A stretch of DNA of 63,736 nt, counting the filler, from Candidatus Fermentibacterota bacterium (lineage in GTDB: Bacteria; JAFGKV01), in NCBI GenBank assembly GCA_016928395.1. It is 10 parts of 10 records of this genome, joined end to end, with 100 filler letters (N's around TTAATTAATTAA, not from the genome) between each part and the next. Parts side by side here need not be neighbours in the genome. Positions count along the whole stretch, not along the records: positions 55,131 to 59,887 come from JAFGKV010000046.1; positions 59,988 to 63,736 come from JAFGKV010000313.1; 8 more parts are not named here. One strand, written 5' to 3'. The position numbers and the translations under genes were made by a program. The notes beneath the pieces were generated by a model. It saw only the letters and a list, made by a program, of their open reading frames with translations, made no database searches and had not been told where the DNA came from. Positions 9,508-63,736 of the stretch are shown in pieces. Numbering within the stretch: position 1 is the first letter of the stretch; the number at the start of each line of letters is the position of its first letter.

Positions 9508-9607
9508 NNNNNNNNNNNNNNNNNNNNNNNNNNNNNNNNNNNNNNNNNNNNTTAATTAATTAANNNNNNNNNNNNNNNNNNNNNNNNNNNNNNNNNNNNN
9601 NNNNNNN
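9508..9607. other. Artificial contig-joining spacer; identical spacers at 24470-24569, 38541-38640, 42371-42470, 45124-45223, 47878-47977, 51267-51366, 55031-55130, 59888-59987
   Basis: Nine 100-bp blocks of N flanking the six-frame-stop linker TTAATTAATTAA. Confidence 0.99.
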
Positions 9608-24468: not shown

Positions 24469-24569
24469 CNNNNNNNNNNNNNNNNNNNNNNNNNNNNNNN
24501 NNNNNNNNNNNNNTTAATTAATTAANNNNNNNNNNNNNNNNNNNNNNNNNNNNNNNNNNNNNNNNNNNN

Positions 24570-36341: not shown

Positions 36342-36627
36342 TGAGAAAACAGTCCTTTCACCGCTGCGACACGACCAAGAGCGCCTTCGCTCAATGGTAC
36401 GAATCTTTGTGTGGCCGGGCAACTGTTTGAGGCCACAAAGAGACGCCGGAGGGGACTATTCTCATGTTAGAATAGTGTGGCTGGAGGCCTCTGGGGAGCC
36501 TGTCTCGTCAACCGATTCCTCCCCTGCGTGCCCGGCCACCGGTGTCTCGGCACGCAGCCTGACCTCACTCTGTCAGACGCTCCTCATGGCCTGCTGCAGT
36601 GAATGACAAGAGGGGGTGGCCCCCCCG

Positions 36628-38540: not shown

Positions 38541-38962
38541 NNNNNNNNNNNNNNNNNNNNNNNNNNNNNNNNNNNNNNNNNNNNTTAATTAATTAANNNN
38601 NNNNNNNNNNNNNNNNNNNNNNNNNNNNNNNNNNNNNNNNCTCCAGGTTCTCGAAGGAATCCGCATCCACGCGCGGGGGGCCGGCAGTTTCGCTATTCAT
38701 GAGGAGCGTCCATCGGGGTCACCCATTGCTCTTTTGATTGTGAGACCGGATTCCACCTTCGCCAGGCGTTGCCGAGCACCTTCGTTTCTTCCGAGCGCTT
38801 GCGCACAGACGTCCTACCCCTGTTGTCATACTCGACGTGTCCCGACCGAGCACCGGTGCTCTCTCCGTGAGCGTGATACGCCGTCCTCCCTGCACCCACC
38901 CATGCCACTACCGATCGTGCCTCCGGTGCGCGCCTCCCCCTTCGAGCTGTCGCTAATGGCAC

Positions 38963-42208: not shown

Positions 42209-42470
42209 GGGCAATCTTCGCCCCGCCGGGGAGGCGGCGCTGTCAGCCCTACGCGACCCGTCGGCTTGATGAACCTTGCCTGCGGTGGGCGCGGTGCTAC
42301 TTTTCGCGCTTCGCTGTTCGTGTCAGCCCCAGGAGGCTGCAGGCCGTGGAGGCATCCTGCGTGGAGGGGCNNNNNNNNNNNNNNNNNNNNNNNNNNNNNN
42401 NNNNNNNNNNNNNNTTAATTAATTAANNNNNNNNNNNNNNNNNNNNNNNNNNNNNNNNNNNNNNNNNNNN

Positions 42471-44941: not shown

Positions 44942-45223
44942 CACGGAAGGCTTCCTCGCCTCATGCCGCTCACCGCACGAGGACGCACCGGCCTGTCGCG
45001 CTGATGGCCCCGGCATCCGCGCGGATCACGTAGACGCCCGTAGGCACCGGTTCGCCGCGATCGTCGAGCCCGTCCCACACGACACTGCAGCGGCCTTGGC
45101 GGGCGTCAGGCAGACGCAACGATNNNNNNNNNNNNNNNNNNNNNNNNNNNNNNNNNNNNNNNNNNNNTTAATTAATTAANNNNNNNNNNNNNNNNNNNNN
45201 NNNNNNNNNNNNNNNNNNNNNNN

Positions 45224-47842: not shown

Positions 47843-47977
47843 TTCGTCATTGCGCGGATGGCGATGGACTGGGACGANNNNNNNNNNNNNNNNNNNNNNN
47901 NNNNNNNNNNNNNNNNNNNNNTTAATTAATTAANNNNNNNNNNNNNNNNNNNNNNNNNNNNNNNNNNNNNNNNNNNN

Positions 47978-51126: not shown

Positions 51127-51366
51127 GAAGACCTCCTTGTTCAGTAGAGCCCTTATTACAGGCTCAATCCTCCACGGAGTCAACCTCCATCGCACTCACT
51201 CTCGCTATGGGGCCCAGAGCCCGGGATCCCGCGGAAAACTCGCCGTATTCGCAGCTGTTTGTGTGCNNNNNNNNNNNNNNNNNNNNNNNNNNNNNNNNNN
51301 NNNNNNNNNNTTAATTAATTAANNNNNNNNNNNNNNNNNNNNNNNNNNNNNNNNNNNNNNNNNNNN

Positions 51367-53259: not shown

Positions 53260-54498
53260 ATGCGCATGACCTCCCCCACCAGATCCATCACGAATCTTCA
53301 TGAAACCAATTTCCACGTGGGAACGCTGTCGCCATCCTGCAGCTCCTGCCTCCAGGGCGGCATGTTGGTCGTTGGCGTCACCGAGCTCTGCACCCGTGCA
53401 TGCTACTACTGTCCAAACCCCCCGGAGCGTACCGATCAATCCTATGCCGGCGACATCGTCGCCAGGAGTGATGGAGACATCCTCAGGGAGGCTCGGCTGA
53501 TCAACGCGTCCTCTGCGTGCATCACCGGCGGTGAACCACTCCTCAAGCCCGAGCGCGCCGCCCGGTTCATCGCCCTGCTGAAGGAGGAGTTCGGGCCGGA
53601 ATTCCAGACCCACCTGTACACCTGCATGGCGTCAATTTCCCACAAGACGTTTCGATTGCTTCGCGACGCGGGATTGGACGAGATCAGGTTTCACCTCCAC
53701 GCACCCGGAGACACCCGCGCCGTGGAAGCGGCCCGCGATTATCAGTGGCGTGTGGGCATTGAGATTCCTTGCATACCAAAGCCCTGGGGCGCGGTTGAGG
53801 AAATCGTTGAAACCGCGCTGCGTCTGGGCATCCATCTCGTCAATCTCAATGAGTTCCAGATGGCACAAAGCAATCACGAGGCGCTGCTGCAGAGGGGCAT
53901 GCGACCCGTGGGCACCATCCCTGATGAGATCGGGGGAACCCCAGTAACCGACGAGACCAGGCGGGCCCTGTTCAACGATACCAGGTTTCTCATGACCATG
54001 CAGGTCTCGGGCAGCAGAGAACTGGGCATGGCGCTCCTGGAGGAGGCGGTAACGTGGAGCGACGATGCGCCGACACTGCACCTCTGCACCACGGCGTCCA
54101 AGTTCACGGTCCAGAAGGTCCGTCGAGACCGGCGACGGGCTCAGTCGGTGGCCCTGCCGTGCGATGAGGTGAACGAGAGGGGATGCCTGCTGTTCGGGCG
54201 CGTGGTGTGCCCGGATGCGACGGTAGCGTCAGCAGTGGAAGCGATGGCCGTGGACAACGATGTACCCGCTGAACGTATCCGCCGCTACGGGCGTGTGGTG
54301 GAGTTACCCTGGTTTCACGCGGCGCGGCTGAAGAACCGGCTGGCTGCGGAGGCGCCGGGAACCGTCGTGGCCGTCTGCGAGGAAAGTTCATACCAGCGGC
54401 AGCGGCCGGTGGAGGATCTGGGAGGCGAGCCGGCAAAGGGCCATGGGCAAAAGCCTCCTGCAGGCGCCGGCCCACTCGGAAGGAACCAGAAGGGGTGA
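53260..54498 (+). CDS. Radical SAM protein, COG2108-like
   Basis: Extra CSSC before CTRACYYCP; ITGGEP, HLYT, AGLDEIRFH, GIEIP, NLNE. Confidence 0.85.
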   Translation: MRMTSPTRSITNLHETNFHVGTLSPSCSSCLQGGMLVVGVTELCTRACYYCPNPPERTDQSYAGDIVARSDGDILREARLINASSACITGGEPLLKPERAARFIALLKEEFGPEFQTHLYTCMASISHKTFRLLRDAGLDEIRFHLHAPGDTRAVEAARDYQWRVGIEIPCIPKPWGAVEEIVETALRLGIHLVNLNEFQMAQSNHEALLQRGMRPVGTIPDEIGGTPVTDETRRALFNDTRFLMTMQVSGSRELGMALLEEAVTWSDDAPTLHLCTTASKFTVQKVRRDRRRAQSVALPCDEVNERGCLLFGRVVCPDATVASAVEAMAVDNDVPAERIRRYGRVVELPWFHAARLKNRLAAEAPGTVVAVCEESSYQRQRPVEDLGGEPAKGHGQKPPAGAGPLGRNQKG

Positions 54499-54529
54499 AG
54501 AAGTGACACGGTGGATGGCACCCTGAACT

Positions 54530-55030
54530 GGGAACTTGTCTCAGAGTCCCTGCGAAGCTCGTACTCGCACACGTGCTCGTGCTCCAATGACCGGAGCCTC
54601 GATTACGACAATGACAACGATTAGGGCAACGAAACGCCTGCGGGCGACGGGAGACGGCCGCCCCTACAACGGGCGGAGTCAGAGCTCCGCCCCTACGAGG
54701 CAACGGTTCCTCGCAGGCCTCCGTAGGGGAGGGCGTCTCTGCCCTCCCGGGCAGCTCATCGATACCGATACCGACTCCGAGCTAGCCGGCAGGCAACCAG
54801 GGGCGGTCGCCCCAACGAGGCAACGGTGTCGTGCGCACACAACACAGAAGCCCCCTCCCTCCATCGTTCCATCATTCCATCATTCCATGCTTAAAAGGCT
54901 CGCCGATTACCATTACGACATCGATACCGATACCGACTCCGAGCCCCCCCTGCGGGCGACCAGAGACGGTCGCCCCTACTACGGCAACGGTTTCTCGTAG
55001 CGCTGGGCGGGCCTGATAGCCGATAGCCAA
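54530..55030. repeat. Repeat mosaic with five GTAG-type REP-like palindromes plus hexamer, heptamer and octamer arms
   Basis: REP-like units at 54642-54667, 54671-54696, 54723-54748, 54791-54816, 54954-54979; GATACCGATACCGACTCCGAG twice; CCATCATT-type octamers; CTGATAGCCGATAGCC. Confidence 0.8.
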
Positions 55031-55130
55031 NNNNNNNNNNNNNNNNNNNNNNNNNNNNNNNNNNNNNNNNNNNNTTAATTAATTAANNNNNNNNNNNNNN
55101 NNNNNNNNNNNNNNNNNNNNNNNNNNNNNN

Positions 55131-55313
55131 ACTCCCCAGCAGGATTAGTCCCACTGCGCCCAGGAACACATCGGTACGATGCCCCCAGATCAAGATGCCC
55201 CAGGCCGGTGTGCGCCATTGGACGAAAGACGAGGCCGCAAGCACGAGGGCTGCGGCCATGACCACACCAGCGCCAAGGAATCTGAGTCGTGTATGCTTCA
55301 TGCTGTTTCTCAT
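55131..55313 (-). CDS. Small membrane protein, 3' truncated by gap
   Basis: Two hydrophobic segments; frame runs into the gap. Confidence 0.4.
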
Positions 55314-55498
55314 GTGATGGTGGCCAAACTCCTGTCGCCTCGGGGTTTGGCATGGTGGGCTCTTTGGGCACGCATGCGATGAAACGGAGGATCCCTCTCC
55401 CGGTCAAGCCGGAAGAAGGCGAGACCGAGGATGTGAGAAGACAAGACGGAGAGGCCATCGCATCCGACAGGCACACCCGCCGGCATGGCCGCACTCCG

Positions 55499-56070
55499 TC
55501 AGAGTGTGCGTATCAGCTCAAAGAGACTCGATCGAGCGGCCCTCTTGTCGAATGTCAAGACCGATTCAGAACCACAGCTTTGGGCGCCATGGCCGATCAG
55601 AAGATCGGGGAGATCAAAGTCCGTCACCCTCGCGGCTGATACGAACGCACGAACCGCGTCCGCTGCCTCAAACTCGAGGGTCGGTACTTGGAGAAGTGCA
55701 TCAAGGGCGCCGACAACATGGGATCGGTCTATGTTGTATACGGAGTCAAGGACCCAGAGGGTTTCCAGTAGCACCGGCACGGTGACGAGGAATGTCTCGC
55801 GCCGGTCCTCCGCCCCTCGCAACAACGCGTATACGACCTGGGACTGGCGCTCATCATCACGAACAAGGAAGCGGACTATGACATTGGTGTCTGAGTACTC
55901 GGATTCACAAATACGATCGCATTCGACCGCCGTTGCATCCCGAGCAGCGGAGTTGCTCGATCGGTTAGATATCACAGCGGATATCTGCCCTCCTCGCGCC
56001 GTGCTGCCCGGTCGCCCCGTCGCTCTCGGTGCGTGACCGTACTTATGAACCCGAGTACTATGGCCTTCAT
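55499..56070 (-). pseudogene. vapC: VapC/PIN toxin interrupted near codon 5 by a 167-bp insertion
   Basis: Removing 55893-56059 gives MKAIDTNVIVRFLVRDD...LETLWVL...DLPDLLI...LTFDK (134 aa) with ATG overlapping the antitoxin stop. Confidence 0.85.
55893..56059. mobile_element. MITE-like non-autonomous element
   Basis: 27-bp imperfect terminal inverted repeats (22/27) at 55894-55920 and 56033-56059; 2-bp CT (AG on minus) repeat at junctions; no transposase. Confidence 0.8.
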
Positions 56071-56315
56071 GTGAGCCGTGATCTCATCCGGCCACCAATA
56101 GCTCGATGCATCTCTTCCACGGACACGGGCTCCCGTTGCGGGTCATGGAGCACGCCAAAGACCTCATCGATCCGTGTGGTGATGGGCCTGATGGTGAGCT
56201 GACCGGTCGACTCGACCGTAAACTCGAGCTTGTCACCGGTGTGCAGACCCAGGGAATCTCGGACTCTCTTGGGGATAGTGACCTGCCCTCTGCTCGTTAT
56301 CTGTGCGACCGCCAT
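56067..56315 (-). CDS. AbrB/MazE/SpoVT-family antitoxin
   Basis: ITSRGQVTIPKRVRDSLGLHTGDKLEF. Confidence 0.92.
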   Translation of the reverse strand: MAVAQITSRGQVTIPKRVRDSLGLHTGDKLEFTVESTGQLTIRPITTRIDEVFGVLHDPQREPVSVEEMHRAIGGRMRSRLT

Positions 56316-56614
56316 ATTCAGTTCTCCTTGCCAACTGATACGTTCTTACATGGTTGTAAGCATCTGATCGGCCGATGTCAACGCCAGCGGTGGAGAGGTT
56401 GGAGGGGCAATGCCCACGATGGCATCCAGACCAGTGGCGCCCGGCCGCATCGCTGCGGGTGCTTTCTCCTCCCCGATCTCCTGGCGATCGATGCCGTTCG
56501 CCCGTGAGCGGGGTTGTCGCGGGGCGGGTGGGGGAGTATCCTGAGAGGCCACATTCACCGCGTGCATGCCACAGCGCGCGCACGTACTCCATGATACTCC
56601 CGCAGGGGAGAACC

Positions 56615-58402
56615 ATGCCTGACGCGAACCGGATGACCGGGGCTTCGACTCCAGGGCTGCGGCCTGGCCGCGAATGGAGTGTCGTCGTTCTCATGATGCT
56701 CATGAGTGCGGCTTTGTCGTTTCGTGTCTTCTTCCCGCACCTTCGCGACATCGTGATCTTTGACGAGTCATACTACATCGACAAGGGACAACGCCTCCTG
56801 CACGGCGAGTTGCCCGTGCTTGCTGAGAATCCTCTGGTGGCTGCGTTTTGGGCGGTTCTGTCGCTTCCCTTCAGAGAATCCCCATTCTGGATGGTGTATG
56901 CATACGGCCTGGGTCGCTTCGTAGCGTTTACATTCCTCTGGGCGGGTTCATACGCCGTGGCGCAGTCTCTTCGGCGTATCGTGCATCCCCTCGCGTCCCT
57001 TGGCTTCCTGTTGGTTACGCCAAGCCTCTGGGGTCTACTGGACAACTCGACCGACGGTCTGTTCGCCGCGCTGTCTGCCGTGGCCTTGGCACGCCTTCTG
57101 GTGTTCCTTCGTGAAGGGAGGCTGGCCAGTGGGCTCCAGGCTTCGGTTCTGCTCGGCCTGGCTGCCCTTGCCCGGAATGATGGTCTTGTTCTTCTGGTCG
57201 TTGCGGTCTTTCTCACGCTGCTTCTTTGGCGAAGAGAGACCGGGCGGCTTCAGAGGGCCGGCGCGATTCTTCTGCCGGCATCCGGCATAGTCGCGGCGTA
57301 CATTGCGATCCAGGCCCTGGCATCGGGGTCGTTGAACCTTGGCATCGCACGGAGGAGTTACGACGCCTTCGAACAGGGTGAAGGCGTCGTCTATGCAGAC
57401 AGCTACCAGGGCCGCAATTCCTATGTCGAGGGCTATGATGCGGCGCGGGCGCTCTACGGGACTCCGCAGGAGAACAGGTATTCCATAGCCCGGGCCATCT
57501 TCAGGAACCCTCCCGCATTCGGGCGACGCCTGATGATCGAGATGGGACAGGCGCCCGCCCAGGCAACGGCTGTCTACGGCCGTGGGCTGCACGGCGTAGG
57601 CGCGGTACTCTTCTTCTTGGCTCTCCGCGGCCTTGTTGCGTTGTGGGGTCGTCGCGAAAAGGCGACGGCGTTGGTTCTCGTTCTCTGGTGCTCGCACCTT
57701 CTGCTCTACGGGCTGACCTTCTATCGCGAAGGGTACTTCCTTCTCGTCTATGCTCCGGTGTTCTGGCTTGCGTCTGCGGGAGCCGCGGCACTCTTCGATG
57801 GGCAGCGGGCGCGGCGGGAGATGTTCTGTACGATAGGCGCGTTGGGGATGTTGATTCTCTATGGGGTCGGGAGCAGCAATCTCCCGTTGTGGGGGCCGGG
57901 AGCCGTATTTCTCCTGGGCGCTCTTCTCGCGTGGGGCCTGCTTTCTGGGCGCACCACAGGATCGTCGCCACAGACACGGGCACTCCTCGGCGTCGGCGCC
58001 GTGCTGCTGGTGTTCTCGCTGCAGGTGCACCTATCCCGCCCGGCGCGTCTCGGTGTGCCGGGCTTTCCCCAGGTCGGAACCCACGCTGATGAAATGGCTG
58101 CCCGGTTCCTGGCCGAGACCCAGCGGGAAGGCACGCCTGTGGCGTCATACACGATGGCGCCGGTCACCCTGGCGAGGATGTCCTATATGGCGCCCCACAT
58201 CGACGGCCGCTGGATTGCGTCGCGGGAGGATTTCATGGAGTGGGTGGCGCAACGCGATGTCCATGTGTTCTACGTGGATAGAAATCTCCGCGTCTGCGAA
58301 CCAGGGCTTTGGGAGATCATGCAGAGTCTTATCGGTACGCACCTGAGGATTGGATTCCATGCCGAAGATGACTACGAGACTGTCGATGTGCTGTTTCACT
58401 GA
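56615..58402 (+). CDS. Polytopic GT-C-fold (ArnT/PMT-like) glycosyltransferase
   Basis: Acidic motif FDESYY after TM1, many TM helices, LAALARNDG, soluble C-terminal domain; GGGGAG RBS. Confidence 0.7.
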   Translation: MPDANRMTGASTPGLRPGREWSVVVLMMLMSAALSFRVFFPHLRDIVIFDESYYIDKGQRLLHGELPVLAENPLVAAFWAVLSLPFRESPFWMVYAYGLGRFVAFTFLWAGSYAVAQSLRRIVHPLASLGFLLVTPSLWGLLDNSTDGLFAALSAVALARLLVFLREGRLASGLQASVLLGLAALARNDGLVLLVVAVFLTLLLWRRETGRLQRAGAILLPASGIVAAYIAIQALASGSLNLGIARRSYDAFEQGEGVVYADSYQGRNSYVEGYDAARALYGTPQENRYSIARAIFRNPPAFGRRLMIEMGQAPAQATAVYGRGLHGVGAVLFFLALRGLVALWGRREKATALVLVLWCSHLLLYGLTFYREGYFLLVYAPVFWLASAGAAALFDGQRARREMFCTIGALGMLILYGVGSSNLPLWGPGAVFLLGALLAWGLLSGRTTGSSPQTRALLGVGAVLLVFSLQVHLSRPARLGVPGFPQVGTHADEMAARFLAETQREGTPVASYTMAPVTLARMSYMAPHIDGRWIASREDFMEWVAQRDVHVFYVDRNLRVCEPGLWEIMQSLIGTHLRIGFHAEDDYETVDVLFH

Positions 58403-58417
58403 TGTGAGGGAGCCGGC

Positions 58418-59521
58418 GTGAGACGGGCACTGGGGATGCATGAGCTCCTTGTCGGCGTGGCCGTCCTGGCGCTCTTCGGCGCGCTGCTGTTCTTCTCGCC
58501 CCGCCTGTACGGCTACTCGCTCATGGAGGATCTGCCGCCGGAGTGGTTCCAATTCTTCTGCCTGGCAGCGGCAGCGTGGTGGTGGGGAAAAGCGGCCGTC
58601 GGGAGATGGAACAAGGGCTGGGCGGGGTTTCTGTTCTGTTGTGCTTTGGCGGCCCTGTCGGCCTTTGTGGCCGGTGAGGAGATCAGTTGGGGCCACCGGG
58701 TGTTCGGGTACGAGACGCCGGCGTACTTCGCCTATAGGAACGTGCAGAATGAACCCACCCTCCACAATTTGGCCCGCCAGCTTGTCGAACCCCGGGGCGC
58801 GGCCATTGCAGTCATGCTGGGGTATGGTATCGTGCTGCCTCTGCTCACATGGGGCATCCGGCCTTTCGGTCGATGGGCCCGCCGGGCCAATGTGCCGGTA
58901 CCGAATCCCGGCACGGCGGTCGTATTCGCCCTGGCAATCTGGCTCATGGGCATGCCCTTCACGGCGACGGACGATGAGGTGGGGGAGGGGTTCTTCGCTT
59001 TGGGGCTGCTCTTTGCCGCATTCACGGCAGCAGGCGGCGTCTCGGGCTCGAGCCTCCTCAGGCGAGTGGGCACCCTGGTCGCAGTCTCGCTGGTGACCTC
59101 GGCCTTCTGCTTTCTCCGGCCTGCCCACCGCGAGCAAGTGTTCAATGTCGGCCATCTTCAGGCTGCTCAAGCCTATGAGGGCCTCGGTATGCGGTGGGAG
59201 GCGGCGCGGGAGTACGAGAGCCTGGCCCGCTATTGGCAGACAGACTGGGAGCTGTGGGTCAAGGTCATCAACCTCTCCTACGAGGCCGGTGATCTAAAGA
59301 AGGCGTTCGATCTCTCGGCGGAGTTCATCACGATCAACAAGCGCATGTGGCGGCCCTTCGAGGTCATGGCCGAGATCGGCCGGATCTGGGGAATAGAGGA
59401 TGAGGTTCGCCGCAGGATTCGCGATGTCCTCATCGACGAGCCCTACAATGACTATGCCCGCTGGGCGCTGCTCATCCTGGAGGGCCGGCGGCCGTTTTAT
59501 GGTGAAGAAGTGAAGAGGTGA
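58418..59521 (+). CDS. Membrane protein with C-terminal TPR-like helices
   Basis: TM region with ED...EW, GEEISWGHR, NVQNEPTLHN, DEVGE; helical repeat tail. Confidence 0.75.
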   Translation: MRRALGMHELLVGVAVLALFGALLFFSPRLYGYSLMEDLPPEWFQFFCLAAAAWWWGKAAVGRWNKGWAGFLFCCALAALSAFVAGEEISWGHRVFGYETPAYFAYRNVQNEPTLHNLARQLVEPRGAAIAVMLGYGIVLPLLTWGIRPFGRWARRANVPVPNPGTAVVFALAIWLMGMPFTATDDEVGEGFFALGLLFAAFTAAGGVSGSSLLRRVGTLVAVSLVTSAFCFLRPAHREQVFNVGHLQAAQAYEGLGMRWEAAREYESLARYWQTDWELWVKVINLSYEAGDLKKAFDLSAEFITINKRMWRPFEVMAEIGRIWGIEDEVRRRIRDVLIDEPYNDYARWALLILEGRRPFYGEEVKR

Positions 59522-59587
59522 GGAGTGAGGCTATCGGCTGTCAGCTATCGGCTGTCGGCTGTCAGCTATCGGCTGTCAGCTATCGGC
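59517..59587. repeat. Heptamer tandem array (GCTATCG / GCTGTCR) preceded by GTGAGGA units
   Basis: About eight consecutive 7-mers right after the stop codon. Confidence 0.85.
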
Positions 59588-59625
59588 AGACCCTGCTGAG
59601 AACTAACCTGTAACTTGATCAGAAT

Positions 59626-59759
59626 AGCCTCGTGCGAAACGCTACGGACGACGCAGAGGTCGTCCCTCTATTCGGGAAAGATACCCTGTCCCCTAATCGC
59701 TCTGGAGGGTCGGGCTTCGTCCCGACCGCGACGCCGCCAGGGTTTCGTACGAGGCTCAG
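59626..59759. mobile_element. MITE/REPIN-like element with 15-bp inverted ends and two internal REP-like hairpins
   Basis: AGCCTCGTGCGAAAC (59626-59640) / GTTTCGTACGAGGCT (59742-59756), 14/15; internal GGACGAC...GTCGTCC and GGTCGGG...CCCGACC. Confidence 0.65.
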
Positions 59760-60193
59760 AAGTTTCCCTCTGTATGAGCAGGGCAACGCTCTAGGCCGGG
59801 GCTAAGCTGTAACTTCCCGCCGCGGCACCGGAAGTTGCACCACGTATCGTCCGGGCGGGCCCGGGGCCCCCACTAAGCTGTAACTTCNNNNNNNNNNNNN
59901 NNNNNNNNNNNNNNNNNNNNNNNNNNNNNNNTTAATTAATTAANNNNNNNNNNNNNNNNNNNNNNNNNNNNNNNNNNNNNNNNNNNNCTCATGTTAGTCG
60001 TCATGTCGCGCGTTGGACGACGCCCGGAGAGGATGAAAATGATGCCGTTCCGTGTGCTTCATAGCACTACGGCGGTTTTGTGAGACCACGTCCCGGCCTA
60101 TTTACGAAGCAGAATAGTGGCCGTGTGATCGTTTCGCTCAGCCTATCTGCACTGCTTCATGCCGCAGGCAGCCTGCCGCGGCACCGTTGTCTC

Positions 60194-60219
60194 GTAGGGG
60201 CGACCGTCCCTGGTCGCCC
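60194..60219. repeat. GTAG-type REP-like palindrome
   Basis: GTAGGGGCGACCGTCCCTGGTCGCCC; near-perfect reverse complement of 54954-54979. Confidence 0.8.
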
Positions 60220-60543
60220 GCGGGGGGCTGCCGGAATCGACGAGCCGGGGGGGCGTGTACGGGTACGGGTACGAACGTCCCCTGCACTCTCAGACGAGTC
60301 TGTAGTTCATCGCGAGCCGACTGGTGCCCCTCCCGTTCGGAAAGGGAGGTTGGAAGGGGCTTAACCCTGAGCGAAGCCGACGAGGTGACGGGCCTTTCTC
60401 TGTGACCATCCTGTCTCACGCCTCGCTCTTCACGCCTGCCACCTCGCGCCTGCCACCTCGCGCCTCACCTTCCCCCGTTTCGGATTTCGAACTTCGAGTT
60501 TCGGATTTCCCGCGAGGCGGGCTGCCCGACTGCCTCCCCGCGC

Positions 60544-61728
60544 TCAGAAAACCTCCCCATCGTACAGCCGGCCAAGGAAGGCCGCCACCGGGAGCACCTC
60601 GACCCCGTCGAAAACATACTCCCTGGTGCCGGCGTAGACGCCGAACATCCGATCCACGACCAGGGACTCCGGGGTCATGGCCAGCGCGCGCATCGGAGCC
60701 TCCCAGCGGCGGTCCCATCGATCCGCCAGCTTCACCTCGACGCACACCACATGCGCCGGATGGGAGGACGTCCGCGTCCGTGTCTCGATCAAGAAGTCGA
60801 CTTCCATGCCCGCCGCGGTACGGTAGAAGGCGATGGCGCGGTGCTTGTCGGCGGTATGGTTGAAGACCCGGAGTTCGTGGTAGATCAGAGTCTCCAGGGC
60901 GAAGCCGCGCCAGATGCGGTCGGGGGGGTCGCGGAGGAGCCCTGCCGCTGCGCGGGCGATCCCCGCATCCATCCAGTAGAACTTGCCATGGGCGCCCTCG
61001 CGTACCTTCACGCCGGGCCGGTATGCGGGCAGCGACCATCCCAGCAGCGTGTCCTCCAGAATCGAGAAGTACACGTCCACGGTGCTGCGGGGTACCGACG
61101 CGTCACGGGCCACGTTCTGGCGGTTGACCACCTGGCCGTTCAGGATACCCGCCACCGCGAGGAATCGGAGGAATGGCGGGAGGTTGCGTACGATTCCCTC
61201 TTCCTTGATCTCCTCCTTGACGTAGGTGTTCACGTACGCATCGAGGATGTCAGCGGCGTGGTGCGGATTCAGGGAAACCAGAGGCAGGGAGCCCCATTCC
61301 AGCGACCGCGAGAGGTCAAAGGCCGGGCCGAGTTCGGATGAAGTGAAGCATTCCAGATGACGAGTGACCGCCCTTCCCGCCAGGAGGTTGGCGCCGCCAT
61401 GGCGGAGTTTGCGCACCGATGAGCCGCACAGCGCGAAGCGCCACCCCTTGGTCTCGATCAACCGGTGGACTTCGTCAAGCAGGGCGGGCACCTTCTGCAC
61501 TTCGTCAACCACAACCCACGTTCCCTCCGGCCGCTGGCCCACCATCGCCTCTATCCGATCCGGCGCCCGGGCAAGCTCAAGGAAAAGTGAGGACTCCAGA
61601 AGATCGAAGTACGGGGCATCCGGGAGGCTCGCCCTCAGCCACATGCTCTTGCCGACGCCCCGCGGCCCGAACAGGAAGAAAGCGCGCTCCGGAAGCCGGA
61701 GCAGTCGTTCAACGAACGCGTGGGGCAT
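60544..61728 (-). CDS. AAA_14 ATPase with DUF4143 domain (COG1373-like)
   Basis: GPRGVGKS, VDEVQK, CGSS, LAGRA, KFYWMDAG, EVDFL, VEVK; GAGGAG RBS. Confidence 0.92.
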   Translation of the reverse strand: MPHAFVERLLRLPERAFFLFGPRGVGKSMWLRASLPDAPYFDLLESSLFLELARAPDRIEAMVGQRPEGTWVVVDEVQKVPALLDEVHRLIETKGWRFALCGSSVRKLRHGGANLLAGRAVTRHLECFTSSELGPAFDLSRSLEWGSLPLVSLNPHHAADILDAYVNTYVKEEIKEEGIVRNLPPFLRFLAVAGILNGQVVNRQNVARDASVPRSTVDVYFSILEDTLLGWSLPAYRPGVKVREGAHGKFYWMDAGIARAAAGLLRDPPDRIWRGFALETLIYHELRVFNHTADKHRAIAFYRTAAGMEVDFLIETRTRTSSHPAHVVCVEVKLADRWDRRWEAPMRALAMTPESLVVDRMFGVYAGTREYVFDGVEVLPVAAFLGRLYDGEVF

Positions 61729-61830
61729 GATGCACTCCTCTCTATATATTGTGAGATTGCGATGGAAAATGCCATTCTCAATGTAAGAATGCAAGAAGTG
61801 GTTGCCCAGCGAGGCGGAGTCGCGGGGATC

Positions 61831-62062
61831 GTGAGGAGTGAGAAGATAGGAGTGAGGAGAGGAAGGCGGAGGACAGTGTCGAGGGGGGCTCGACCACGGT
61901 GCCGCCGCTCGCGGCGGCCACAGAGGGCAGTAGTCGTCGGTTGTCAGTTCGGAAAGCCGATAGCCAACTGCCGACTGCCGACGGGGCTTCGGACGTGCCT
62001 GTGCCTTGCTCACCCCTCTCCTCACTCCCTCACTCCTATCTCCTCACTTCTTCCCCTCCTCG
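61831..62062. repeat. Nested inverted short-tandem-repeat structure
   Basis: Outer GTGAGGA-type arms at 61831-61862 and 62015-62050 in inverted orientation around an inner GTCGGTT/GCCGACT heptamer hairpin at 61927-61982. Confidence 0.75.
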
Positions 62063-62161
62063 CCCCTCTGTCACAAACCGCGACCATCCTGAACATACGT
62101 GAGTGACAGGGAATCCCGCTGGGTTCCTAATCCTCTTTCACCCTCACCTGTGAGGTCGCAT

Positions 62162-62779
62162 ATGAGACCACCAGGAATCTCTCGTCCCGGCCGTCTGCTC
62201 TCTCGGATAGGTTGGCGCGGCTCCGTTGTGCTGCTTCTCTTGCTCCTGCCCCTGAGCGCGGAGGCCCAGTATGTGGTCGGCCCCTCGGTCATCGCCGGGG
62301 GAGGCTCTCGAATGACGGGGGGCAGCTATGTCGTGACCGGCACCACGGGCCAGAGTTCCCCCGTGGGAACCTCCGCCGCGGGCGCCTACCAGACCCACCA
62401 TGGGTTCTGGCACGCGGCCACGGGCGGGGGTGGCTCCCTAAGCCCCATGGTCCTCGCCATCACCCTGCTCAATCCCACCGCCGCGCGCCTCTCCTGGGCC
62501 ACGGTGACTGGCGCGACGTTCTACGACCTCTACCGGAGCACCACGGCATTCTTCAATGCCTCGGGAGCTCCGTGGCGAACCGTGGCGGCGCCGGCCACCT
62601 CGTCAGACTTCGCCGCGGGAATCGGCGATGTCGCCACGAACTACTTCTTCCGCGGCATCGCCCGAAACGCCACGCAGTTGTCGCCCCAGAGCAACGTGGC
62701 CGGTGAGTTTGACTATGGCTGCGACATCCCCGGAGCCGCCAGAGGTGGATCGGGGGCGCAGGATGGCAACAAGAACTAG
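62162..62779 (+). CDS. Small secreted protein: Gly-rich 'GGG...GQ...GFW' N-domain plus FN3-like 'SNxAGEFDY' C-domain
   Basis: Signal peptide ending AEA; VIAGGG..GGSY..GTTGQ...HGFW; C-domain aligns with the tail of the C10 peptidase. Confidence 0.8.
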   Translation: MRPPGISRPGRLLSRIGWRGSVVLLLLLLPLSAEAQYVVGPSVIAGGGSRMTGGSYVVTGTTGQSSPVGTSAAGAYQTHHGFWHAATGGGGSLSPMVLAITLLNPTAARLSWATVTGATFYDLYRSTTAFFNASGAPWRTVAAPATSSDFAAGIGDVATNYFFRGIARNATQLSPQSNVAGEFDYGCDIPGAARGGSGAQDGNKN

Positions 62780-62834
62780 AAACAGACAGAGTCACTTCAA
62801 CAGGCAGCATGGGAGTCAGCCAAGGAGGAAAGCC

Positions 62835-63736
62835 ATGACCATTCGCCACATCACGACCTCACTCCTGGTGGGGATCCTTCTTCTGATCGGCTTCGTTGAG
62901 ACATCAAGCGCCGAGGTTCCGCAGGTGATCAGTTACCAGGGGAAGGTGACCGATGCGTCGGGCAACCCTGTGGCTGATGGTCCCTACACAATGCAGTTCC
63001 GGATCTACGACGCGGCCACGGGAGGAACCCTGCTGTGGAACAGCAACAACCAGACGGTGGCGGTGGCGGGCGGCATCTTCAGTGTGCTGCTTGGTGACAG
63101 CCCACAACCTGCTCTTTCCTTGGACTTCAGCACTGACTACTGGCTCCTGGTGATCTTCAATGGCGTCAATCAGATGCCGCGTCAGCGGTTGGCGTCTGTG
63201 GGCTATGCCTACATGGCCAGCGGGCTGGTGGTGGGGACCGAGGTGAGCGGGGCAATCACGAGCGGCACCTACGCGGCCCTCAAGGTGACGAACACGGCGA
63301 CCGAGGGCGGCGTCTATGGGATCCACGGCCAGAGCGCGTCTACCCTCGGCCGCGGCGTGCTCGGCCAGACAACTACGAGCACCGGGCAGACCTACGGCGT
63401 GTATGGGCAGTCCTCTTCCGATGCGGGCATGGGCGTGCACGGCCTGGCATTGGCCTCCACGGGCTACACGTACGGTGTGTATGGGAAAGCAAACTCCACC
63501 GGGGGTCGCGGAGTGTATGGCATCGCCGCGGCCACCGCCGGCCCGACCTACGGGGTGATTGGCCACTCCTCTTCCGATGCGGGCACGGGTGTGTGGGGCA
63601 AGGCGGTTGCGCCTACAGGCACCACGTACGGCGTAGTGGGCGAGACCTACACATCGAGCGGCAACGGAGTGCGGGGCGTGAACTACGCCACGACAGGCTA
63701 CACGTGCGCAGTTCAGGGACTCGCGTTTTCCTCAGC
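62835..63736 (+). CDS. Secreted fibre/adhesin-like protein with G-V-x-G repeats (3' truncated; absent from ORF track)
   Basis: AAGGAGG RBS; manual translation MTIRH...SSA-EVPQVISYQGKVTDASGNP...FRIYD...LLW...GIFSVLLG...PRQRLASVGYAY, then 26-aa repeats each with two GVxG; no stop before window end. Confidence 0.85.
   Translation, partial: MTIRHITTSLLVGILLLIGFVETSSAEVPQVISYQGKVTDASGNPVADGPYTMQFRIYDAATGGTLLWNSNNQTVAVAGGIFSVLLGDSPQPALSLDFSTDYWLLVIFNGVNQMPRQRLASVGYAYMASGLVVGTEVSGAITSGTYAALKVTNTATEGGVYGIHGQSASTLGRGVLGQTTTSTGQTYGVYGQSSSDAGMGVHGLALASTGYTYGVYGKANSTGGRGVYGIAAATAGPTYGVIGHSSSDAGTGVWGKAVAPTGTTYGVVGETYTSSGNGVRGVNYATTGYTCAVQGLAFSS

Follow-up and report, generated by a model that had tools for sequence, protein, structure and literature searches.

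Three small AG-flanked units in a Candidatus Fermentibacterota genome: probably an IS110-family miniature, a hairpin element and a repeat cassette with no evident common mechanism

Do small insertions of unrelated sequence that carry the same few letters at their edges owe their movement to one enzyme? This question is raised by the last two contigs in a 63,736-base stretch of DNA (the window) from a Candidatus Fermentibacterota bacterium (assembly GCA_016928395.1), in which an earlier note had described three small insertions with a common T-AG...C-AG junction, namely element (a) inside the toxin gene vapC, unit (b) at 59625-59759, and element (c) at a contig start with an apparent empty site elsewhere in the window. 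All three letter patterns are present as written, and (a), (b) and (c) are unrelated in sequence. Most probably, (c) is a miniature of an insertion sequence (IS) of the IS110 family, (a) is a separate hairpin-shaped miniature inverted-repeat transposable element (MITE), and (b) is a repeat cassette, with no common mechanism evident. The window joins ten contigs of a draft metagenome-assembled genome (G000; 343 contigs, 4.79 Mb, 94% complete, 3% contamination) by identical N44-TTAATTAATTAA-N44 linkers. The phylum is represented in the collection by three genomes, G000 as the source, G001 of the same genus and G002 of the same family, and four of five public sequencing runs were examined, all of them as assembled contigs. 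The features around (c), with its supposed empty site, are as follows.

55131 to 59887: contig C41, which carries (a) and (b).
59888 to 59987, no strand: non-biological N44-TTAATTAATTAA-N44 linker between C41 and C46.
59988 to 63736: contig C46, with (c) starting 10 nt into the contig.
59988 to 59995, plus strand: remnant of the left half of the putative target palindrome (loop letters CTCATGTT), truncated by the contig start; the arm ACTATTCT is visible on the overlapping contig C15.
59996 to 59997, plus strand: left copy of the putative AG core dinucleotide, from junction comparison.
59998 to 60110, plus strand: (c), a 113-nt putative miniature IS110-family derivative, from comparison with the full element and other copies.
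60111 to 60112, plus strand: right copy of the putative AG core dinucleotide, from junction comparison.
60113 to 60118, plus strand: remaining right arm of the palindrome, AATAGT, from junction comparison.
36455 to 36476, no strand: unoccupied palindrome ACTATTCT-CATGTT-AGAATAGT on contig C34, a paralogous potential target.

The junctions of (c) read CTCATGTT-AG, then TCGTC...GAAGC, then AG-AATAGTG (59988-60119). Position 59988 is the first base of C46 and the left flank within the window is just 10 nt long, and the first 87 nt of this contig are the exact reverse complement of the start of C15, on which the flank continues as ACTATTCTCATGTTAG before the element begins with TCGTC; on the right side, GAAGC is followed by AGAATAGTG. 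Element (c) interrupts a palindrome, ACTATTCT-N6-AGAATAGT, at the boundary of loop and right arm, with one AG on each side. This palindrome occurs at 87 sites in G000 (at most 2 mismatches in 16 fixed positions; 51 exact) and at 72 sites in G001 (at most 1 mismatch), with no match to the reversed-pattern control in either genome, and a search of G002 found none. It is extended by at least 3 bp of variable sequence at 36 of the 87 sites in G000, and several sites are embedded within larger repeats. The 17-mer at 36461-36477 that the earlier note took for the empty site is a real palindrome match, being the only one in the window while none of 100 shuffles contained any match at up to 2 mismatches, and its loop plus AG fits the guide of the full element described below at 7/8 positions. 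It is, however, a paralogous unoccupied target among the 87 copies and not an empty allele of the (c) locus. The right flank of (c) has no orthologue in G001 or G002, where only dispersed repeats matched. A role of the palindrome as a PadR operator is without support, as none of the three PadR genes found lies near a listed palindrome site.

Relatives of (c), all at the same position within the palindrome, occur in both genomes of the genus. In G000, a 1.56-kb copy lies on C144; C71 and C9 hold short copies, C275 a left end, and C225 and C256 right ends. In G001, C312 carries a full copy, C70 the left end of another full copy, and C177, C28 and C258 short copies. Across both genomes, AG is followed by TCGTCATG at 10/10 left junctions, with RCTATTCY-N6 ahead in 9/10, and GAAGC is followed by AG at 9/9 right junctions, with AATAGT next in 7/9. 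The shared junction of the earlier note thus holds across the (c) family, in which the palindrome loop supplies the T before the left AG, and the element's last base is the C ahead of the right AG.

The earlier note had also proposed looking for autonomous copies with the same ends, and for (c) such a copy exists. The 1.56-kb element on C144 encodes a 426-aa open reading frame (ORF) with the domains DEDD_Tnp_IS110 (E 8e-28) and Transposase_20 (E 5e-22), for which Pfam PF01548 and PF02371 are both above cut-off. The protein aligns over both domains with the IS621 transposase 8WT6 (E 1e-9), an alignment that spans the GID, ESTG, KTD..D and ES(A/G) motifs, and its gene is the sole one of this type in G000. 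In the element, 243 non-coding nt precede the start codon and ~25 nt follow the stop; long terminal inverted repeats are absent. By their sequence traits, that is, a predicted DEDD/Ser recombinase, the layout of the ends and the same 2-nt core on both sides, the C144 element and its miniatures belong to the IS110 group.

Elements of this group have their bridge RNA located in the left end, with a long left and a short right end, and their left target guide corresponds to the top strand of the left flank plus core while the right target guide is the reverse complement of the core plus right flank (available text of Durrant et al. 2024, PMC11208160). Words of this kind are present in the left end of the C144 element. 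It holds GATGTTAG followed by TC, where the flank is CATGTTAG and the element begins with TC; CTATTCT, the reverse complement of AGAATAG, which would fit a right target guide; and CGAAGCAG, identical to the right end plus AG, which would fit a left donor guide. The copy in the sister species G001 (protein 91% identical) shows a few scattered substitutions, three of them inside the 8-nt guide, with CATATGAG at the same guide position and a flank reading GATATGAG. For a wider comparison, 80 metagenome relatives of the recombinase (43-59% identity) were taken, and a scaffold set of 27 loci, made up of 25 metagenome relatives and the two genome copies, was defined by GAGCCCG-N6AG-TY-TG and enough upstream sequence. 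A locus's own guide matches a word 60-200 nt upstream at 7/8 positions or better in 17 of these 27 loci, compared to 41/674 pairings with foreign guides, and the two letters following the upstream word equal the two following the guide in 14 of the 17 own-guide matches. The predicted left target guide is thus borne out by covariation with the flank. In an uncontrolled comparison, 14/40 relatives have the longest word common to their left end and to the gene's downstream DNA at 53-121 nt ahead of the start codon, with AG within the word or at its end. Because of these guide/flank and right-end word comparisons, we take AG to be the likely core of the recombinase clade.

We therefore favour the IS110-like, core-based part of the earlier proposal for (c), given the autonomous relative, the AG flanks and the guide match, and not as a mechanism for all three units. 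Element (c) would be a non-autonomous miniature of an IS110-group insertion sequence whose full form on C144 is predicted to encode a DEDD/serine recombinase and to carry bridge-RNA-type guides in its 243-nt non-coding left end. The recombinase would exchange strands at an AG core common to the target and to the joined element ends, which would account for the AG on both sides of every copy of the (c) family, and the target would be the right half of a genus-specific palindrome, ...N4-AG^AATAGT. The miniature appears to keep only the core-surrounding bases that donor guides would read, suggesting that it is moved in trans by a full element.

The short copies have in common with the full element only positions 1-44 of its left end (81-86% identity) and its last 12-14 bases, and are devoid of the recombinase gene and of any guide words; there is no second scaffold in G000. 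They begin with TCGTCATG... and end with ...TTTACGAAGC, and since only the AG core is repeated, with neither terminal inverted repeats nor a target-site duplication, we call (c) "MITE-like", as is MITEPpu9 (see below). As judged from sequence, the (c) family is like MITEs in being small and non-coding, in having ends common with an autonomous element and in occupying several loci. One type of miniature recurs with the same interior in different flanks at 3 or more loci in G000 (C71, C9, C275/C225) and 3 in G001 (C177, C28, C258), which argues that it has spread as a miniature. An alternative would be that the miniatures are full elements deleted in place and were never mobile as miniatures, in line with the interior of the window copy, which was found nowhere else; the identical interiors of the other type at all these differently flanked loci make this improbable. 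Flanks of the G000 miniatures on C15/C46 and C275 fit the G000 guide at 7/8, and those on C71 and C9 (AATATGAG, ATATGAG) fit it at 5/8 and the G001-type guide at 7/8. A donor of 22 bp is enough when the bridge RNA is given in trans, according to the available text of PMC11208160, so that movement of such miniatures by a full element seems plausible.

Several points weigh against a bridge-RNA-guided miniature at (c). Minimum-energy folds of the IS left ends were uninformative and the two-loop fold of a bridge RNA was not obtained, an Rfam scan of these left ends gave no match, and no convincing right donor guide was found in the left end of the C144 element. AATAGT is absent at two right junctions (C9 in G000 and C258 in G001). 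Only a single full IS110 element, and hence a single guide, is assembled in G000, and the element that moved the C71 and C9 miniatures is absent from this assembly. The interior of (c) in the window is unique to this copy, and its own mobility as a miniature is therefore unsupported. The linkage of C144 to C46 rests on binning, because the contigs come from a metagenome bin with the completeness and contamination given above. Finally, no empty allele, circle junction or excision product was found in the assembled contigs of the public runs.

Compared to known systems, the C144 element is most readily placed beside IS621 of E. coli and other IS110-group bridge-RNA elements as described in the available text of PMC11208160 (8WT6-8WT9). 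It has the same recombinase architecture, aligning in both domains, and similarly shows a long non-coding left end, a short right end and a 2-nt core on both sides, with a left target guide that repeats the left flank plus core and a repeated palindrome as its target. Unlike IS621, its core is AG and not CT, the protein similarity is remote (E 1e-9), the right target guide apparently precedes the left target guide, the RNA fold is putative, and the host belongs to an uncultured phylum. For the miniatures, the closest likeness is to MITEPpu9, a MITE-like IS110-family derivative of ISPpu9 in Pseudomonas putida KT2440, which in the available text of Pares-Guillen et al. 2025 (PMC12288879) likewise lacks a transposase, is delimited by IS110-family ends and occupies repetitive palindromes, and is believed to depend on recombinase provided in trans. 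MITEPpu9 differs in carrying the sRNA gene ssr9 and in often adjoining its parent IS, whereas the miniatures of the (c) family are 113-115 nt long, contain no recognised gene and stand alone. Our literature search found no IS110-derived miniatures other than MITEPpu9. IS1111, also an IS110-family element, in the palindrome of QMITE2 in Coxiella burnetii, which is of the repetitive extragenic palindrome (REP) type, resembles (c) in using a dispersed palindrome within larger repeats as landing site; it belongs to another subgroup with the guide in the right end and long subterminal repeats, and the available text of PMC5896051 does not describe IS miniatures. The target palindrome itself is similar to REP sequences and bacterial interspersed mosaic elements (BIME) with their RAYT transposases in being short and high-copy, with variable extra stem pairs, and in lying within mosaic intergenic repeats. 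It differs from them in its AT-rich core in a GC-rich genome, and palindrome sites were found within 1.5 kb of 0/5 Y1 transposase genes in G000, so that the association of REP/REPIN with RAYT was not seen.

If our reading of (c) is right, the two sister species offer a clean natural case of bridge-RNA retargeting, in which guides of the same element differ at three positions and the flanks differ to match. With MITEPpu9 as the first, the miniatures would be a second instance of IS110 derivatives that lack both transposase and guides and have to depend on a full element acting in trans. In annotation terms, AT-rich palindromes in this lineage would serve as landing pads of an insertion sequence, and vapC in the window is an old gene disrupted by a MITE. 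Current understanding of IS110 elements and MITEs is not overturned by these results, which concern ordinary mobile DNA in a poorly sampled phylum.

Unit (b) proved to be of a different nature. Both the 15-bp inverted repeat that closes the unit and the TAG/CTCAG letters are found at 59625-59759, and comparison of copies places its boundaries elsewhere, as listed here.

59603 to 59618, plus strand: leader module L (CTAACCTGTAACTTGA), common to units with and without (b).
59619 to 59757, plus strand: cassette (b), 9 nt (TCAGAATAG) followed by a stem-closed repeat, from copy alignment and a covariance model.
59758 to 59787, plus strand: trailer module R (AGAAGTTTCCC...GGGCAAC), also found elsewhere in G000 without (b).

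Eight close copies of (b) (~95% identical) share the 25 nt to the left of the boundary that the earlier note had claimed, and the true left edge lies 9 nt to the left of it. This 25-nt leader is present in 8/8 close copies and otherwise has just one weak match (C259, 5 mismatches). Of the 14 trailer copies, 6 come after (b), 4 after the leader with a short alternative spacer (12 nt in 3/4 cases) and 4 after another hairpin module, so that (b) is one of several alternative fillings between leader and trailer. Six diverged copies in G000 have neither leader nor trailer and carry other letters in place of CAG. The insertion with T-AG and C-AG ends that had been claimed for (b) must therefore be given up, as its left "junction" lies inside a unit kept in 8/8 close copies and its right one is missing from the diverged copies. 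From these alignments, (b) is a conserved stem-closed repeat of ~140 nt which in one subfamily apparently fills the slot between a fixed leader and a fixed trailer.

A covariance model of (b) has 16, 15 and 18 matches in G000, G001 and G002 (E up to 0.01, both strands counted). Those in G002 have about equal scores on both strands, and five of them fall within 1.2 kb (C160:20406-21548) as a local cluster of (b)-like hairpin units. The fold of (b) has a z of -4.1. In the 18 best copies, base-pair covariation is no higher than in controls: 83.8% of cells are paired vs 82.1% in shuffles, double-change pairs number 6 vs a shuffle mean of 5.1 (a value of 6 being reached in 180/500 shuffles), slid controls reach the same covariation score, and RNAalifold gave no covariation signal for (b). 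An Rfam scan of 54000-63736 had no match for (b) and returned only a sub-threshold narK match at 60178-60246 on the minus strand (29.2 bits vs a gathering score of 43.2, E 0.022). The hairpin word of this match, GGGCGACC...GGTCGCCC, recurs beside (b) copies on C44 and C128, so that it is probably another repeat module and not a riboswitch-like element.

The intergenic DNA around (b) is a mosaic of leader, cassette and trailer units. A tandem run of GCTATCGG/CTGTCA-type units (59531-59588) directly follows the stop codon of a 367-aa ORF, and similar GATAGC/GATACC runs flank other (b) copies. A module of ~70 nt, CTAAGCTGTAACTTCCCGCCGCGGCACCGGAAGTTGCACC...CCCCCA, with direct repeats of the leader word CTAAGCTGTAACTTC on either side, lies at 59805-59887 (the contig end) and is also found on C225 and C56 of G000.

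Element (a) interrupts a toxin gene on the minus strand of C41.

55499 to 56070, minus strand: vapC, predicted from ORF and domain as the PIN-domain toxin of a toxin-antitoxin pair, interrupted after codon 4 by (a).
55893 to 56059, minus strand: (a), a putative 167-bp rod-like MITE including one AG, with terminal inverted repeats of ~25 bp, from family alignment and fold.
56067 to 56315, minus strand: vapB-like antitoxin, predicted from ORF and domain, with MazE/AbrB fold and a stop codon that overlaps the vapC start (ATGA).

On the minus strand, the junctions of (a) read GCCAT-AG, then TACTCGG...CCGAGTACTC, then AG-ACACC. Removal of the 167 nt brings the first four vapC codons in frame with the PIN domain. 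The first conserved Asp of this domain falls on profile position 4, and its codon needs the G of the right AG. Searches with nhmmer found 27 matches to (a) in G000, including 9 nearly full-length copies and a second copy in tandem that is truncated at a contig end, and at least 20 copies in G001; there was none in G002, and none in 38 more distant genomes save for one 28-nt match. In the predicted fold, (a) forms one rod whose terminal stem measures 25 bp (z -7.9). At C129:5287-5582 of G000, two copies stand in direct tandem with a single AG between them, and the same joint is present in contigs of a public run. A go-back joint from 56060 to 55897 in the public contigs, considered as a possible circle, is the tandem dimer as found on C129. 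In a relative that is ~8-12% diverged (a public run from another study), (a) sits at the same vapC site with both junctions bridged by 47-48 nt, indicating that the insertion is old. None of the assembled contigs of public runs skips (a) or (b), by which an absence of empty alleles or circles is not shown. The vapBC locus has no orthologue in G001 or G002, where only dispersed repeats matched. A GTG-start ORF of 158 aa on the minus strand (55499-55975) begins inside the MITE and runs in frame into the PIN domain, so that a longer VapC variant could still be made.

How (a) chooses its sites was examined in the flanks of 25 copies (9 in G000 and 16 in G001; the tandem second copy, which has no right end, was left out, and the anchoring of three degenerate G000 copies is poor). 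To the left, the five bases are C in 21/25, T in 18/25, any letter, A in 15/25 and G in 21/25, and the tail on the right reads Y, any letter, A in 20/25 and G in 22/25, with no conservation further out on either side. The two flanking pentamers are identical in 1/25 copies and have the same middle letter in 10/25, and tail variants follow sublineages (CAAG in 5 copies, TTAG in 6), whereas the left pentamers that go with them are unrelated. This mismatch between the pentamers, together with the inherited tails, argues that the right tail is part of (a) and the left CTNAG its target, and by the same data there would be no duplication beyond the ambiguous AG. Models with duplication of TA (IS630-like), of TNA or of 5 bp were discarded, since left and right sides disagree within copies and the right tail is passed on together with the element. 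In sequence terms, (a) is a hairpin-shaped MITE that appears to insert immediately 3' of CTNAG and to end in its own YNAG. Inverted repeats, size and copy number are those of a MITE, and a target-site duplication of fixed length was not found. The autonomous copy that had been sought with the ends of (a) is missing from G000, where long elements bounded by such ends occur only as pairs at or below chance expectation and the ends of the C144 element do not match. A scan with the 14-nt right end of (a) gave at least 118 loci in unrelated phyla, as expected of a chance-level word, and was uninformative as to a parent.

For the enzyme that moved (a), two kinds of transposase come into question about equally, each of them less likely than not. 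It is possible, if doubtful, that a single-strand HUH transposase (IS200/IS605- or IS91-like) was responsible, since such enzymes would use a fixed word of 4-5 nt without duplication and a similar word at the far end. The confinement of CTNAG to the left flank with a C-YNAG tail on the right is what this model expects, as is insertion 3' of the fixed word without duplication; the pentamers that agree fully in one copy and in their middle letter in ten, the sublineage tails that stay constant while left pentamers differ, and the second copy placed directly after the tail of the first on C129 all fit as well, and five Y1 transposase genes are present in G000. However, none of these five has ends of (a) within 1.5 kb, and the single rod with its 25-bp stem is unlike IS200/IS605 elements, which have two subterminal hairpins in the same orientation. 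The rod-like fold and the long terminal inverted repeats would in turn suit an ordinary DDE-type MITE with a preference for CTNAG sites and a 2-bp (AG) duplication, a tentative reading that also draws on the AG on both sides of most copies, which is the form in which the junction of the earlier note holds for (a), and on the restoration of vapC by precise removal of the element plus one AG. Against it, the right inverted repeat would stop 3 nt short of the element end, an unusual arrangement for DDE ends, and no transposase gene with ends of (a) was found in G000. The 2-bp-duplicating DDE option of the earlier note thus applies to (a) only. An IS110-type mechanism for (a) is hardly to be expected.

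The same doubt falls on the idea that one AG-core recombinase of the IS110/IS1111 type moves all three units, each by its own guide RNA, which we consider very unlikely. In its favour, (a) and (c) are both flanked by AG without any longer duplication, and the AG core recurs across the recombinase relatives, even if the 27 scaffold loci are AG-ended by construction and the recurrence of right end plus AG in 14/40 is uncontrolled. Moreover, the inverted repeats of (a) are offset by a few nt at the right end in a manner reminiscent of the subterminal repeats of the IS1111 group (available text of PMC11208160), and the dimer on C129 has a single AG between its ends. Against these points stand the one bridge-RNA scaffold of G000, whose guides do not match the ends of (a) or (b), and the absence of (a) or (b) ends at up to 2 mismatches from all 80 metagenome relatives. 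The flank specificity of (a), with 5 nt on the left and none on the right, falls below the guide-length matches of (c), and (a) does not sit in the palindrome and has different ends; (b) is not a clean insertion at all. In a genome-wide junction search, a 10-nt arm (at most 1 mismatch) starting with a dinucleotide XY was paired with a partner arm 60-300 nt away that ends in its reverse complement and is followed by C and XY. The AG structures, for which the earlier note had proposed such a search, were no commoner than those of comparable dinucleotides (AG 117, CT 116, CA 114, GA 113, TC 113, GT 107), and no recurring family was seen among them beyond the copies of (a) and (b). There is thus no genome-wide excess of AG-stem...CTCAG structures. 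The AG plays a different part in each unit, being the first pair of the closing stem in (b), the putative recombination core in (c), and the end of target word and tail in (a), and for two unrelated families to share one dinucleotide is a 1-in-16 coincidence.

A broader variant would have one AG-core DEDD lineage serve unrelated non-autonomous families, the miniatures and (a) included, each via its own trans-acting guide RNA. This is a long shot; if true, recombinase and guides would be separable and exchangeable modules in nature, and miniatures in palindrome variants that fit guides from several different full elements would give the first sign of such modularity.

Mapping of the window to contigs located nine artificial N44-TTAATTAATTAA-N44 linkers, and any feature spanning one of them is an artefact of concatenation:

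9508 to 9607, 24470 to 24569, 38541 to 38640, 42371 to 42470, 45124 to 45223, 47878 to 47977, 51267 to 51366, 55031 to 55130, and 59888 to 59987.

A second IS110-like gene lies on C179 of G001 (31% identity), where the contig stops within its left end. What is conserved 3' of this gene is not a right end but a distinct non-coding element of ~330 nt, which G000 has as well. Copies lie at C79:3786-4141 and C340:23655-24015 in G000 and on the reverse strand of C179 in G001 (~1190-1500), there just downstream of the distant IS110-like gene. The element ends in GACCCGCCCTCTAATGGGTGACCCC and contains a word resembling a tRNA T-arm.

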